A DNA stretch of 4,355 nucleotides from a virus (Duplodnaviria > Heunggongvirae > Uroviricota > Caudoviricetes), in the IMG/VR virus record IMGVR_UViG_2713896780_000016. One strand, given 5' to 3'. Shown here one piece after another: positions 1-4,347 of the stretch (position 1 is the first letter of the stretch; each line of letters begins with the position of its first letter). A model generated the notes under the pieces. The model had not been told where the DNA came from and ran no database searches. It saw only the letters and a list, made by a program, of their open reading frames with translations. The translations under genes were made by a program, and so were the position numbers.

Positions 1-722
1 GTTTCAGAGCCAAGTTTTAACGCCTGCTCACGCAGCGCCTTAAACTGCGGGCTGTTTTTGTCGATTCGCGTCAGTGCCTGAACGCGGGACATCTCTTTGC
101 CGAACCCGAGCGCAGGCTGCAAAAAACGCCCGGCAGCATAGCCGCCCGCCGCTGCCGCACCAATTGCCAGCGCACCACCTGTTTTCAGTTTTCCCGCGGT
201 TTCCTGCGCGCGCGAATACCGCTCACGCGCCCGCGTTACACGCGCAAGCGCCTGCCGTTCGCGTTCAAGCTGGTTGTTGTACTGTTCGGTGCGTCTGATG
301 GCCTGCTGGATGGTGTTATCGCTGCCTGTCAGGGAAATGCCGTGGCGTTTCAGCTCTCCGCCAAGCTCCCGCATTTTCTGAATTTCCCGTGTGCGCGATT
401 CATTCAGGCGTTCAAGCCGGGTGCTTAACTGCTGCATCAGCTTTTGTTGTTTTTCGCTGAGCACTGTACCCGTGCGTTGTAACTGATTAAGGGCGTTAAG
501 CTGGCGTCGTGCTTTCACGATACCCGCATCCGCTTTACTGACAGCGTCGCGGGCGCGCTCAAATGATCGCGCCTGACGCTCGAGATTTTTGATCGCCCCC
601 TGCGTTCGCTGGATGGAGTCACCAAACTGCCCCATCAGGCGGCGGGCGTTTTCGGCAGGCCGGGTCAGCCTGTCAACGGCGCTGAAAGCGACCCGGATAT
701 CAAGAGTCTTCATTGTCTGCAT
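1..722 (-). CDS. T: Phage tail tape measure protein (P2 gpT-like), N-terminal part only; the 3' end lies beyond the left edge of the window
   Basis: The minus-strand frame is open from the ATG at 722-720 to the window edge; I checked every in-frame triplet and found no stop. It is not in the supplied ORF track, presumably because no stop lies in the window. Translation begins MQTMKTLDIRVAFSAVDRLTRPAENARRLMGQFGDSIQRTQGAIKNLERQ..., a Q/R/E-rich coiled-coil-like segment, then a Gly/Ala-rich hydrophobic stretch (GGALAIGAAAAGGYAAGRFLQPALGFGKEMSRVQALTRIDKNSPQFKALREQALKLGSE) typical of tape measure N-terminal domains. It sits directly downstream of E/E' as in P2. An alternative start is the ATG at 713-711 (MKTLD...), which has a GCGGGA Shine-Dalgarno about 9 nt upstream. 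Confidence 0.85.
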   Translation of the reverse strand, partial: MQTMKTLDIRVAFSAVDRLTRPAENARRLMGQFGDSIQRTQGAIKNLERQARSFERARDAVSKADAGIVKARRQLNALNQLQRTGTVLSEKQQKLMQQLSTRLERLNESRTREIQKMRELGGELKRHGISLTGSDNTIQQAIRRTEQYNNQLERERQALARVTRARERYSRAQETAGKLKTGGALAIGAAAAGGYAAGRFLQPALGFGKEMSRVQALTRIDKNSPQFKALREQALKLGSE

Positions 723-1330
723 TCCCGCTGCGAAGTGCCGCCCGCTCACGCCAGCTAACCACTTCGCCGGGCGTCATCATGAAGATTTCGGCGGGCGACC
801 AGTTAAAAATGGCGGCAATATCCGCCACAAAGTCTTCTATGTGCTCAAAGCACACAACCGTGATCAGGCTTCCGTCGCCTGTTCGTTCTTCCCGCCAGAG
901 TCCGCACCGCTCAAAAAATTTACGGCAACCACACATAACTGAATAAAGTCACGGGATGCCATTTTTTTGATCGTCACTTCATCCAGTCGCGGTGATGTCA
1001 CGCGTGACAGCAGCGTAAACATGGATTCCGCTTTCAGATTCAGCACATCAGACAGCGACAAATCTCGCAGAGATCCAGCCTGCTCAATAGCCCCGGTGAT
1101 CTCCACATACGTGATTTTTTCGCNNNNNNNNNNNNNNNNNNNNNNNNNNNNNNNNNNNNNNNNNNNNNNNNNNATCCAGCCTGCTCAATAGCCCCGGTGA
1201 TCTCCACATACGTGATTTTTTCGCCGCCTCGCTCAATTGGTTGGGTAAGTTTTACGCCACGCTCACTGGTTTCTTTCACAGTGTCAGTAACTACCGTGTT
1301 TTCGGTATCGATGTTTTTCGTCTCTTTCAT
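700..1330 (-). CDS. Predicted E+E' fusion product (about 176 aa) made by programmed -1 ribosomal frameshift at T TTT TTG; the E' extension overlaps the start of the tape measure gene
   Basis: The minus-strand heptamer TTTTTTG (rc of plus 912-918) lies in the E zero frame as AAT TTT TTG, i.e. X XXY YYZ = T TTT TTG. The -1 frame is open from 948 to the TGA at 702-700 (track ORF 700..936 is the same frame) and reads ...ERCGLWREERTGDGSLITVVCFEHIEDFVADIAAIFNWSPAEIFMMTPGEVVSWRERAALRSGNADNEDS. Its stop lies 23 nt inside the T ORF. Same heptamer and same E/E'/T arrangement as reported for phage P2. Confidence 0.55.
864..1330 (-). CDS. E: Tail assembly chaperone gpE-like (P2 E family); the reading frame is interrupted by an N-run with duplicated flanks, and is intact (about 121 aa) once the duplication is collapsed
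   Basis: ATG at 1330-1328 preceded by AAGGAG (rc of 1338-1343) with a 7-nt spacer. The 5' part reads MKETKNIDTENTVVTDTVKETSERGVKLTQPIERGGEKITYVEITGAIEQAG up to the gap. The same peptide ...EITGAIEQAG continues as SLRDLSLSDVLNLKAESMFTLLSRVTSPRLDEVTIKKMASRDFIQLCVVAVNFLSGADSGGKNEQATEA in the track ORF 864..1106. The two parts are in frame once the 51-bp duplicate plus 50 N (101 nt in total) is removed. Position is immediately after the tube gene and before the tape measure gene, and the pattern (G.LR..SL.DV...L..V..P.L) is as I recall for P2 gpE-type chaperones. Confidence 0.78.
912..918 (-). other. Candidate -1 programmed frameshift slippery heptamer T TTT TTG (recoding signal) near the 3' end of gene E
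   Basis: Plus strand 912-918 is CAAAAAA, so the minus strand is TTTTTTG, phased as T TTT TTG in the E frame. It sits within the 864..948 overlap between the E frame and the open -1 frame. Confidence 0.55.
1073..1123. repeat. 51-bp direct repeat, copy 1, abutting the left side of the N-run (probable unmerged contig-end overlap)
   Basis: atccagcctgctcaatagccccggtgatctccacatacgtgattttttcgc at 1073-1123 is identical to 1174-1224. Copy 1 ends exactly where the N-run begins. Confidence 0.9.
1124..1173. other. Run of 50 N (scaffold gap or masked bases) inside gene E
   Basis: Fifty consecutive n characters; the ORF track shows 17 X codons across it. Confidence 0.99.
1174..1224. repeat. 51-bp direct repeat, copy 2, abutting the right side of the N-run
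   Basis: Identical to 1073-1123 and starts at the first base after the N-run. The offset of 101 nt is not a multiple of 3, which explains the apparent frame break in E. Confidence 0.9.
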
Positions 1331-1384: not shown

Positions 1385-1897
1385 TCAGCCAAGCCCGAGC
1401 GCGGAACGGATGCGATCGGGCACAATGTCCTTGCCGTCCTTCCGGTAAATGAAGTTCAGCAGGTCAATCTCCCACAACGGGCGATCGTTAACACTCAGCT
1501 TGTAGTAGGTGTTTTTAATGGCGTAAGTGTGTGATGTGGCTTCGCCCTGTTTGGCTTCCCCCATATCAATTTCCGTCACACGTCCGCGCATTTCGACTTC
1601 ATACAGGTCGCTTTCTGCATCGGTGTAGTATTCACCCGCAAAACGCAGCAGCGTGCCGTCAATCGTGCCGCCATACTTAAGGAACAGCTCACGAACTGCG
1701 CCCCCCATGACAAAGCTCGCATCAAGCGCGGAGTCGTCCAGACCGAGATCAATACTTACCGCACCCATCATGCCACCACCCCGGTAGCTGTCGGTTTTGC
1801 GCGTCAGCTTAGGCAGAGTGACGGACGTCACCTTACCCACTTCGTTTTCACCATCCACAAACAGCGTAAAAAAGCGAAGATGTTTTGGTACAGCCAT
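1385..1897 (-). CDS. FII: Major tail tube protein (P2 FII-like), 170 aa
   Basis: Track ORF MAVPKHLRFFTLFVDGENEVGKVTSVTLPKLTRKTDSYRGGGMMGAVSIDLGLDDSALD... The size (~170 aa) and the TLPKLTRK..YRG.GM and GR..EIDMGE.KQGE motifs match the P2 FII tube family as I recall it. GGGAGG Shine-Dalgarno (rc of 1904-1909) 6 nt upstream of the ATG. The start overlaps the sheath stop (ATGA), directly downstream of the sheath gene. Confidence 0.9.
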   Translation of the reverse strand: MAVPKHLRFFTLFVDGENEVGKVTSVTLPKLTRKTDSYRGGGMMGAVSIDLGLDDSALDASFVMGGAVRELFLKYGGTIDGTLLRFAGEYYTDAESDLYEVEMRGRVTEIDMGEAKQGEATSHTYAIKNTYYKLSVNDRPLWEIDLLNFIYRKDGKDIVPDRIRSALGLG

Positions 1898-3081
1898 CAG
1901 GCACCTCCCAGCACCGCAAATGCGGGACCAAAGAATTCATCAGTAAACGACTGGTAAAGCTCCATGTCTTCCAGCGGGGGAACAGGCGTATATTTGTAGC
2001 GAATACGCACGCGCCCCTGACGTAAATTCGTGGTGCCGTTATCCACCACGTCATACCAGCACGACGCCCCAATCAGTTTCCCGGCAGTAACCAGTGAATC
2101 CAGTTTTGCCCTGATGGCACTGATAACATCTTTCACGTTCGCAGGCGTCAGTGGACTGTCGATGGTTTCAAACTGCGCTTCCGCAATTGAATCAGCCAGC
2201 ACCTGTGCGGTTCGGGTATACACCTCAAAGATGTAGGCGTTCGTTTCCGGTGTGCGGTTGCCCCAGAAGCGGAACCCGTTGCGACGAATAATGGTCGTGA
2301 TTTCTTTGTTGTTGAGGCTGTTGGCATCACTGTCTTCGGCCTGCAACGACCAGAACACATGCCTCGACATCCCCAGCACATTTTTAACCGGAACGTTGGA
2401 CAGCGATTTGTGCCAGCCCTGCTCATGGTCAATGTACGCACGAAGGCCGCACGCATAGGCAGGCGCGGGGAACGTTTCGTTTTTGCCACTTTTCGGGTTG
2501 TAGGCGATGAAGTCCGGCCATAAGAGCATCACCTCACGTTCGTTGAATTTCTGGCGGTAGGTAATCGCCTCAGCCATCGTGTTACAGCCGTGACATGAGG
2601 CATACACAAACGCGCGCAGTTTACCCGCAATCACGCACAGGGATTTTGTTACCGCCTCCGTGTCCAGCTCCGGCGCGGCCAGAATACGCGGACGGTATCC
2701 GATGCTTTCATCCTGCTCTGCAACAAGCAGCGCATACATCCCCGTATAGCTGCCGTCAGATTCAGAACCACCGATAACCAGTTGATCCTGCGTTTTTCCG
2801 TCTTCTTCTTTGTGTTCAGCCACGCGAACGACGATCACCTTTGTGCTCACCTGGTCTGCGATGGCCTTAAGCGCACGATAAAGCGTCCCCGTTGTTCCGC
2901 ATTTTCCCAGCACGTCATTGACGCGGGTCAGCAGTGTGGGCTTGTTCAGCGGGAACAGCTCCGCATCCGCATCATCCGCCGTTGCCACGATACCGATAAC
3001 ACTGGAATCAACATCATTAATCGCTGTTACCAGGTCGGTACTTTCCGTAACACGGGCACCATGAAAACGAGTTTCACTCAT
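1897..3081 (-). CDS. FI: Contractile tail sheath protein (P2 FI-like), 394 aa
   Basis: Track ORF MSETRFHGARVTESTDLVTAINDVDSSVIGIVATADDADAELFPLNKPTLLTRVNDVLGKCGTTGTLYRALKAIADQ... The DADAE.FPLNKP, LRAF.Y, WPDF, GWHK.LSNV, IRR.GFRFWGNRT, YTRTAQV and YTPVPPLE blocks and the ~395 aa length match P2-type sheath proteins as I recall them. AAGGGG Shine-Dalgarno (rc of 3090-3095) 8 nt upstream of the ATG at 3081. Confidence 0.93.
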   Translation of the reverse strand: MSETRFHGARVTESTDLVTAINDVDSSVIGIVATADDADAELFPLNKPTLLTRVNDVLGKCGTTGTLYRALKAIADQVSTKVIVVRVAEHKEEDGKTQDQLVIGGSESDGSYTGMYALLVAEQDESIGYRPRILAAPELDTEAVTKSLCVIAGKLRAFVYASCHGCNTMAEAITYRQKFNEREVMLLWPDFIAYNPKSGKNETFPAPAYACGLRAYIDHEQGWHKSLSNVPVKNVLGMSRHVFWSLQAEDSDANSLNNKEITTIIRRNGFRFWGNRTPETNAYIFEVYTRTAQVLADSIAEAQFETIDSPLTPANVKDVISAIRAKLDSLVTAGKLIGASCWYDVVDNGTTNLRQGRVRIRYKYTPVPPLEDMELYQSFTDEFFGPAFAVLGGA

Positions 3082-3237
3082 AGCTTCAGCCCCTTGTATC
3101 CGTTAAATGATTCGGCAACAATCATCACCCACCACGCGCGTAATCTCACCCCTGCGCCGTTCTCCCGCCACGGCGACAACAAAAAGCAGTAACCCCCTCC
3201 GCACGCACATGCGACCATGCCGCACAGGGAGGGAAAG

Positions 3238-4347
3238 ATGACCGACACCACCATGCAATTGCTCAGTCAGAGCACAGACCCCGTGAAAATGCCGGATTTT
3301 GATATTCTCGCGGAGGGGAAAACGCTGTCCGGCGTGGCAGAGCGCCTGATGAGTCTGTCACTGACCGACAACCGGGGATTTGAAGCGGACCAGCTCACCA
3401 TCACGCTGGATGATGCGGATGGTCAGTTGCAGCTACCGCCACGGGGCGCGCGCCTGACGGTTCTCATTGGCTGGAAAGGAGAACCGCTGACAGAAAAAGG
3501 CACTTACATTGTTGATGAAATCGCTCACGAAGGTCCGCCGGACAGGCTGACTGTTTCAGCCAGAAGCGCAGATTTTCGGGATGAATTTAACGTTAAACGT
3601 GAAGTGTCCTGGCATGATGTGACCGTTGAGCGCGTGGTATCTGCTATCGCTCACCGGTACGGCCTGAAACCGCAAATCAGCGAAATGCTGATGGATATCG
3701 AAATCGACCACGCCGACCAGACCGAAGAAAGCGACATGTCCTTCCTTACGCGCATGGCGGAAATGCTGGGCGCAATCACCACGGTAAAAAGCGGTAATCT
3801 GTTATTCATCATGCCAGGCGGTGGCGTGAACGCACAGGGAAAACCATTGCCATCGTTTGCCATCACACGCAGCAGCGGCGATCGCCATCAGTTTCGCATT
3901 GCTGACCGCGAGGCGTATACGGGTGTACGCGCCTACTGGCTTGATCTTAATTACGGGAAAAAGAAAAAAGTCAGCGTGAAACGCCGCAAACCGCCAAAAC
4001 CCAAAAAGGAGAAAAGCAGCAGCCGTGAAGGTGATTATATGGAAGGTGCGGAAGGCAATGTGTTTGTGTTACGCAAGACTTATCAGAACGAGCAGGCAGC
4101 AAGACGCGCAGCGGCGGCAAAGTGGCAGCAGCTACAACGCGGAGCCGCATCATTTTCCATCACGCTGGCACGTGGACGTGCAGAACTCTACCCCGAAATG
4201 CATGGTACGGTAACAGGATTTAAAAGCGAGATTGATAATCAGGACTGGATTATTGCAAAAGCCGAGCACACCATTGATAACAGCGGCTTTACCACGCAGC
4301 TTGAGCTTGAGGCAAAAATCCCGGAATGGATAGCGGAAACAGAGTGA
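3238..4347 (+). CDS. D: Phage late control gene D protein (P2 gpD-like tail/baseplate hub-type protein), about 369 aa
   Basis: Track ORF 3217..4347. I prefer the internal ATG at 3238 because GGAGG (3228-3232) lies 5 nt upstream, whereas the ATG at 3217 has no Shine-Dalgarno. The protein (MTDTTMQLL...LTITLDDADGQLQLPPRGARLTVLIGWKGE...EGPPDRLTVSARSADFR...DQTEESDMSFLTRMAEMLGA...) has the size and conserved blocks I associate with the gpD family. Stop TGA at 4345-4347. Confidence 0.88.
   Translation: MTDTTMQLLSQSTDPVKMPDFDILAEGKTLSGVAERLMSLSLTDNRGFEADQLTITLDDADGQLQLPPRGARLTVLIGWKGEPLTEKGTYIVDEIAHEGPPDRLTVSARSADFRDEFNVKREVSWHDVTVERVVSAIAHRYGLKPQISEMLMDIEIDHADQTEESDMSFLTRMAEMLGAITTVKSGNLLFIMPGGGVNAQGKPLPSFAITRSSGDRHQFRIADREAYTGVRAYWLDLNYGKKKKVSVKRRKPPKPKKEKSSSREGDYMEGAEGNVFVLRKTYQNEQAARRAAAAKWQQLQRGAASFSITLARGRAELYPEMHGTVTGFKSEIDNQDWIIAKAEHTIDNSGFTTQLELEAKIPEWIAETE

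Follow-up and report, generated by a model that had tools for sequence, protein, structure and literature searches.

Gene content of the locus

The 4,355-nt stretch of DNA analysed here (the window) carries a block of P2-type tail genes on the minus strand and a gene for a gpD-like baseplate hub protein on the plus strand. The features are listed below; some coordinates were transferred from L002, the prophage of E. coli O145 strain RM8988.

1–713, minus: 5' part of the tape-measure gene T, truncated by the left end of the window
700–1330, minus: tail chaperone genes E and E', RefSeq features transferred from L002
864–1330, minus: E
700–918, minus: E' extension frame, linked to E by a −1 frameshift
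912–918, minus: slippery heptamer T TTT TTG, for the shift from E to E+E', in the overlap of the two frames
1124–1173: run of 50 N within gene E, flanked by an exact 51-bp duplication (1073–1123 = 1174–1224)
1385–1897, minus: tail tube gene FII (Pfam Phage_tube, E = 7.5e-47)
1897–3081, minus: tail sheath gene FI, 394 aa (ORF list and Pfam)
3082–3237: spacer between FI and D, putative divergent control region, 156 bp
3238–4347, plus: gpD-like baseplate hub gene D, intact, 369 aa (Pfam Phage_GPD, E = 2.7e-17)

The T start at window position 713 comes from transfer of the RefSeq T coordinates (17906–20713 in L002). Pfam searches assigned T to PhageMin_Tail (E = 1.6e-56), E' to Phage_P2_GpE and FI to three sheath domains (Phage_sheath_1, Gp18_domIII_N and Phage_sheath_1C). 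With FI, FII, E/E', T and D in the window and U just outside it, where it was seen in L002 by Pfam, the P2-type late tail gene set is complete. The ORF list, the Pfam assignments and the D start at 3238 bear out the description in the initial annotation: minus-strand FI and plus-strand D point away from each other, with 156 bp (3082–3237) between them.

The heptamer at 912–918 is read as N-F-L in the zero frame and as F-F-E-R-C in the −1 frame, as seen from the sequence and from the two overlapping ORFs. The P2 record annotates a frameshift site of this heptamer type, and the heptamer of the window is identifiable as the −1 programmed frameshift site that is conserved in P2-type tail chaperone pairs. 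The nearby run of 50 N has no counterpart in a 100%-identical complete genome, which covers the window in 4254 bp rather than 4355 bp (101 bp fewer) with neither the N run nor the duplication. The apparent gap at 1073–1224 is a scaffold artefact made from two overlapping contig ends, and the E frame is broken artificially.

The in-frame ATG of D at 3238 is preceded by GGGAGGGAAAG, with a Shine-Dalgarno sequence, GGGAGGG, at 3227–3233; an alternative in-frame ATG upstream, at 3217, has no ribosome-binding site. The D protein is 48.6% identical to P2 gpD across residues 19–369. RefSeq calls of D are inconsistent: the gene is called from an internal start, as an 801-nt member of the 'VgrG/Pvc8 family' (L002 23446–24246), in RM8988 and many other E. 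coli genomes, and a partial antisense 'hypothetical protein' is annotated over its 5' part (L002 23393–23485; window 3238–3546). The D ORF is intact from 3238 and can be aligned to P2 gpD from residue 19.

Identity of the prophage and contiguity of the FI/D junction

Nucleotide comparisons identify the window as the tail-gene region of a P88-like (Xuanwuvirus, Peduoviridae) E. coli prophage. A megablast search against phage records returned 13 matches, all P88-like, at 95–98.5% identity and covering 99% of the window. The phages matched are the Xuanwuvirus phages P88, PhiR44_2, 500465-2, P884B11 and Chuche and Citrobacter phiSM; P88 and PhiR44_2 are the 97.9–98.5% identical ones (P88, 97.9% over 99% of the window). 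Identity reaches 100% in prophages of E. coli O145 strains, including RM8988, and at least 80% of the window is found in one collinear place in 1354 of the 5426 complete E. coli genomes.

The source of the window is a draft assembly, and the 50-N gap with duplicated contig ends at 1073–1224 makes an assembly misjoin or a chimera at the FI/D junction, a possibility already raised in the initial annotation, worth weighing. The N gap lies 1.9 kb from the spacer. A 756-bp junction probe, made up of the spacer with 300 bp of flanking sequence from each of FI and D, was contiguous (at least 80% probe coverage, identity almost always at least 95%) in 1358 of the 1376 complete E. coli genomes that it matched among the 5426 searched, the other 18 matches being partial. 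The junction is also contiguous in the 13 phage records and in 61 species-representative loci (see below). Roughly one in four complete E. coli genomes has the P88-type junction, and that it arose by misassembly is almost certainly wrong.

Two P88-like records, CP025923/NC_049344 (520873) and CP025874/NC_049341 (503458), match the window in three pieces over a region about 1.7–1.9 kb longer, with an IS100 (IS21-family) transposase and istB annotated under the match. The former has two 'tail sheath family protein' features, which suggests that the insertion sequence interrupts FI. The record of Citrobacter phage Shae_phiSM (OR565851.1) is 95% identical to the window over the tail region and has D, ogr, tape measure and tube annotated; this is at odds with the phiSM paper (PMC6456863), which describes a long non-contractile siphovirus tail by electron microscopy.

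Gene order relative to P2

P88 and L002 share one order of genes. A first plus-strand stretch (J, I, H, G, the invertible G'/H' segment and a DNA invertase gene) is followed by a minus-strand block of U, T, E', E, FII and FI, and by a last plus-strand stretch with D, optional cargo, ogr and hok, after which the prophage ends. All Xuanwuvirus members compared (P88, PhiR44_2, 500465-2, P884B11, Chuche and phiSM) have the same gene order, spacer and box (see below) as the window. In P2, Fels-2 and Wadgaonvirus 500465-1, the order is collinear, FI-FII-E-T-U-D-ogr. The F operon of P2 thus has its seven genes on one strand with D last; this is not the case here, where FI to U are inverted onto the minus strand and D, on the plus strand, opens a separate unit. 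The genes are the same as those of the P2 F operon, but the proteins are only 31–49% identical, compared with 95% for G, and ogr lies 3' of D in P2 as it does in the phage group of the window.

Comparison of these orders indicates that the P88 arrangement is the P2 arrangement with the FI-to-U block inverted between the invertase gene (or G) and D. The direct 5' neighbour of FI in Fels-2 and Wadgaonvirus is the invertase gene, and for that reason the P88 order can be read as an exact inversion of FI to U. An inversion relative to P2 had been among the readings offered in the initial annotation, and the collinear phages place its breakpoints upstream of FI and between U and D. The initial annotation had asked about the neighbouring genes: in the P88 and L002 genomes U lies to the left of T and ogr to the right of D, and neither has another D to the left of T. 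The variable cargo locus upstream of FI, to which the junction had been tentatively linked, is not involved.

To the right of D, the gene content varies. P88 lacks a PIN-domain gene and has ogr directly after D, whereas L002 has a PIN gene between the two; within the predicted D-ogr transcription unit, the interval between these two genes is best described as a slot for variable cargo. The inserted gene of L002 (24419–25489, outside the window) encodes a 356-aa PIN_12-domain protein and has AT-rich flanks.

The divergent order extends beyond Xuanwuvirus. SEN4 and SEN5 (Senquatrovirus), Kp4871-3 (Reginaelenavirus) and Kp4847-1 (Reipivirus) have U, T, E, FII and FI on the minus strand and D and ogr on the plus strand, with the same box and spacing as the window and a D protein 64–74% identical to that of the window. 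In SEN5 and the Klebsiella phages the spacer is longer (190–246 bp, measured between tblastn ends), and an invertase gene was not found in the fetched flanks. P88, SEN5 and the other phages with the divergent order are placed by ICTV in Peduoviridae; the order is a clade-specific difference and gives no ground for exclusion from that family.

The presence of an invertase gene next to the block raises the question of whether the FI–U block is an active invertible segment, flipped by a Gin/Cin/Hin-type invertase, with the window showing one of two states. The same invertase family flips the neighbouring tail-fibre segment, and in Xuanwuvirus the gene adjoins the block, with a gap of 35 bp to the stop codon of U. 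That gap separates the stops of the convergent invertase and U genes at the far end of the inverted block and holds a bidirectional intrinsic terminator (L002 17368–17393; a 10-bp stem-loop with T runs on both strands). Several observations are hard to reconcile with a flipping segment. The junction is intact in the 1358 of 1376 matching E. coli genomes described above, with partial matches in the other 18. Fels-2 and Wadgaonvirus carry the invertase yet keep the P2 order. A search for inverted repeats at both breakpoints, the invertase/U junction and the FI/D spacer, yielded only scattered low-identity pairs. The neighbouring invertase is not implicated, because relatives lacking one in the fetched flanks (SEN5 and the Klebsiella phages) share the order. 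An actively inverting FI–U block is therefore extremely unlikely. Examination of the breakpoints revealed no trace of a recombination mechanism.

Breadth and probable history of the inversion

The distribution of the two orders was examined in a scan of one genome per bacterial species, which returned 80 loci. All 61 loci whose D is at least 61% identical to that of the window are divergent, with T, E, FII and FI on the minus strand followed by D and ogr on the plus strand, while all 19 species-representative loci with a D at most 54% identical are canonical, with U directly before D on the plus strand. About 27 genera of Enterobacterales account for 59 of the 61 divergent loci; they include Salmonella, Klebsiella, Enterobacter, Serratia, Erwinia, Pantoea, Pectobacterium and Brenneria, as well as Xenorhabdus, Photorhabdus, Providencia, Morganella, Yersinia, Hafnia and Edwardsiella. 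The remaining two are on a contig labelled Vagococcus (L011) and in a metagenome bin labelled Enterobacter sp. (L037). The former (NZ_JBQPOM010000071.1), assigned to the Firmicute Vagococcus sp. WN89Y, contains an enterobacterial prophage region with 98% protein identity and is probably a contaminated or mislabelled assembly.

In a neighbour-joining tree of 83 D proteins, the divergent and canonical loci are separated by one bipartition. Furthermore, the identities of D and of FI to their counterparts in the window co-vary, with r = 0.97 over 62 divergent loci, from which it follows that both sides of the junction have been inherited together. This correlation bears on another alternative, namely that the junction is a recent mosaic in which D-ogr or FI–U was acquired from another P2-like phage, or in which D is an extra copy; a mosaic junction and a second D copy had both been suggested in the initial annotation. 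P2-like phages are mosaic, and the cargo to the right of D varies, as with the PIN gene present in L002 and absent from P88. Each genome, however, gives one D match, and the spacer itself is homologous and can be aligned across genera. Together with the co-variation of D and FI, these observations make a recent mosaic origin very unlikely. Junction contiguity, the D bipartition and the D/FI correlation, taken together, effectively rule out that the junction was misassembled, is a recent mosaic or belongs to a flipping segment. The data fit one ancient inversion, since fixed in a large clade, its single origin being suggested by the D tree.

The divergent order is already known, in that public records annotate it (for example P88, NC_026014) and four ICTV genera of Peduoviridae, Xuanwuvirus, Senquatrovirus, Reginaelenavirus and Reipivirus, normally have it. 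The phages carrying it have been published (P88, PMC5285337; phiSM, PMC6456863; SEN4/SEN5, PMC5261728), and P88 (PMC5285337) and phiSM (PMC6456863) form plaques. Among the searchable papers, those on P88 and SEN4/SEN5 contain no explicit description of the inversion, and in the phiSM paper the sole match to 'inver' is the DNA invertase gene. The initial annotation had regarded the order as non-canonical, a view that it would have given up on seeing the order to be common and already described in this phage group. Relative to P2 the description stands; as an anomaly it does not, the order being the normal and fixed one of the P88-like group and a common arrangement among close relatives, as seen in P88 (NC_026014), phiSM, SEN5 and two Klebsiella phages (Reginaelenavirus and Reipivirus). 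Aberrant as it looks when set against P2, this layout is standard in a very common group of prophages, and annotation pipelines should therefore not flag it as an assembly error or a rearrangement.

Conserved elements of the FI/D spacer

Late promoters of P2 have the consensus TGT-N12-ACA and depend on the zinc-finger activator Ogr (PMC3931495). An Ogr_Delta zinc-finger gene lies 3' of D in L002 (Pfam, E = 5.1e-14), and ogr was found by tblastn in P88 and nearly all divergent loci. The spacer of the window contains the following elements.

3121–3126, minus: GATGAT, predicted −10 hexamer for late transcription towards FI, 34 nt from the box
3161–3178: Ogr-type activator box TCT-CCCGCCACGGCG-ACA, centre 3169.5
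3176–3186, plus: conserved arm ACAACAAAAAG on the D side of the box, kept in most spacers
3213–3218, plus: predicted −10 hexamer GACCAT of the D-directed late promoter, 34 nt from the box

The box of the window differs from the P2 consensus at one position (TCT in place of TGT). It has a close counterpart in the spacer between P and O of the same prophage: the sequence TCT-CCCGCCACGGCG-ACA followed by ACAAAAAG in the window corresponds to TCT-GGCCGTTTTCTT-ACA followed by ACAAAAGC in the P/O spacer, where the arm is present as ACAACAAAAGC. An extended dyad, TGTTNT-N12-ANAACA with at most one mismatch, has only two matches in the 27.5-kb prophage, in FI/D and P/O. The bare box occurs 16 times over the whole prophage against about 20 expected, which is the chance level, but between divergent late genes of the prophage it occurs only in P/O and FI/D. 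The significance of the box comes from its position and conservation, not from its count. With the A-rich arm added to the pattern, 0.07 matches are expected in the window; the spacer contains an exact match, and the only other match in the window (442–465, minus) lies inside T and has one mismatch.

Conservation was assessed across the divergent loci. Of 62 distinct FI/D spacers, 58 have T[GC]T-N12-ACA, with little variation in how far it lies from the FI start, and four have no match under this pattern; SEN5, Kp4871-3 and many others have a perfect TGT-N12-ACA box. The box lies 72–79 nt upstream of the FI ATG in P2, Fels-2, Wadgaonvirus, SEN5 and the window. When 45 distinct spacers were stacked on the box, the TGT and ACA ends were nearly invariant and the intervening N12 was free, while −10-like hexamers stood 34 nt out on each side with A2 and T6 conserved. 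Variants of the hexamer include GATGAT, GATTAT, GAATAT and AATGAT on the FI side (minus strand) and GACCAT, AACCAT, AATCAT, AACTAT, GACGAT and AATGAT on the D side. Both hexamers of the window, GATGAT and GACCAT, are weak. Searches of the spacer (3082–3237) found neither a sigma-70 consensus promoter nor a terminator, and no Rfam family was detected in the window, spacer included. The absence of a sigma-70 consensus is as expected for activator-dependent promoters.

Two further blocks are conserved across genera in the spacers of L007–L068: a CACG block about 9–14 nt to the left of the box (window about 3137–3141), and a GC-alternating block, CGCGCGCG, followed by A/G-TG, to its right (window about 3200–3212). 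They could replace a −35 element or constitute a second binding site.

A model for late transcription from a shared activator site

The P2 record provides a precedent for one activator site serving two promoters. A single site at 3057–3087 is annotated for both pO and pP, whose starts at 3016 (minus) and 3127 (plus) are 111 bp apart, and the activator site of pF lies about 58 bp upstream of the F-operon start. The FI-side geometry of P2, Fels-2 and Wadgaonvirus, from the box to the hexamer and the ATG, is comparable to that of the window, and this likeness points to the FI-directed promoter as the counterpart of the mapped P2 pF. On the other side of the box, the conserved box and hexamers resemble the shared site of pP and pO, and for this reason D probably has a late promoter of its own. 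The initial annotation had argued that D would need its own promoter in this spacer; a conserved, predicted candidate is indeed present.

These comparisons have led us to propose a model whereby the FI-FII-E/E'-T-U genes of a P2-type F operon were inverted once in the ancestor of the clade, while D and ogr kept their orientation. The inversion would have moved the activator site of the F promoter beside the 5' end of D. Late control of D could have been kept with little change because the Ogr box is a dyad that is already bidirectional at pP/pO, and a correctly spaced −10 would have been enough for D to remain in the late regulon. In the present arrangement, one Ogr dimer bound at the dyad 3161–3178 would activate two outward late promoters that lack a −35 element, about 55–57 bp away on either side. 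The leftward unit, FI-FII-E-T-U, is predicted to start near 3112–3114 (minus) and the rightward unit, comprising D, any cargo gene and ogr, near 3225–3227 (plus). The rightward start would give D a very short leader of about 11–13 nt, beginning at the Shine-Dalgarno sequence. As with the P2 pP/pO site, which is a dyad midway between outward late promoters, the box would lie midway between its two starts, and the predicted distance between these (about 111–115 bp) is close to the 111 bp mapped in P2. The two sites differ in that pP/pO flanks P and O, whereas the spacer of the window flanks FI and D and has a predicted function. We infer Ogr binding, the transcription starts and the late timing of D from the sequence comparisons described above.

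An alternative is that the order is as described, but D is transcribed from a constitutive or otherwise regulated promoter and the box serves FI only. The weak −10 on the D side and the very short leader would be compatible with this. The D-side hexamer, however, keeps A2, T6 and the exact 34-nt spacing while the surrounding bases change, the spacer has no sigma-70 consensus promoter, and D is a structural baseplate protein required along with the products of FI–U. Independence of D from Ogr is, on this evidence, improbable, though it is the least improbable of the alternatives considered. The explanation as a whole, a single ancestral inversion of FI–U in a P88-like prophage together with a shared, bidirectional Ogr-box spacer, is one that we consider likely to be correct.

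A more extended form of the model can be held with somewhat less assurance. The F operon would be split into two Ogr-dependent units served by one activator site, and the late regulon of the clade would be driven from two bidirectional control regions only, P/O and FI/D; we regard this as slightly favored. S and V abut, leaving no intergenic gap for a separate V promoter, although one may lie within the S coding sequence, and the whole-prophage count included no bare box upstream of V. If the proposal is true, the D-(cargo)-ogr unit would provide positive feedback on the activator and give cargo, for instance the PIN-domain gene, a place where it is expressed late.

An activator site common to FI and D was not found described in the searchable papers. 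In our analysis the shared FI/D promoter model is a small new step, a direct extension of the P2 pP/pO paradigm. It would offer an example of operon splitting without loss of co-regulation, and the conserved box and spacing constitute a testable promoter model for P88-like phages.

Lastly, three small ORFs in the spacer, at 3107–3241 (plus), 3078–3254 (minus) and 3103–3258 (minus), overlap the predicted box and promoters. They were judged to be probably spurious, because the spacer varies in length and sequence and it is the box-hexamer pattern, not a reading frame, that is conserved. Similar spacer ORFs are annotated as P88 gp50 (33155–33286) and SEN5_27 (L006 8800–8952). The promoter model can help to correct such small ORFs, as well as the inconsistent D starts, in RefSeq and GenBank records.
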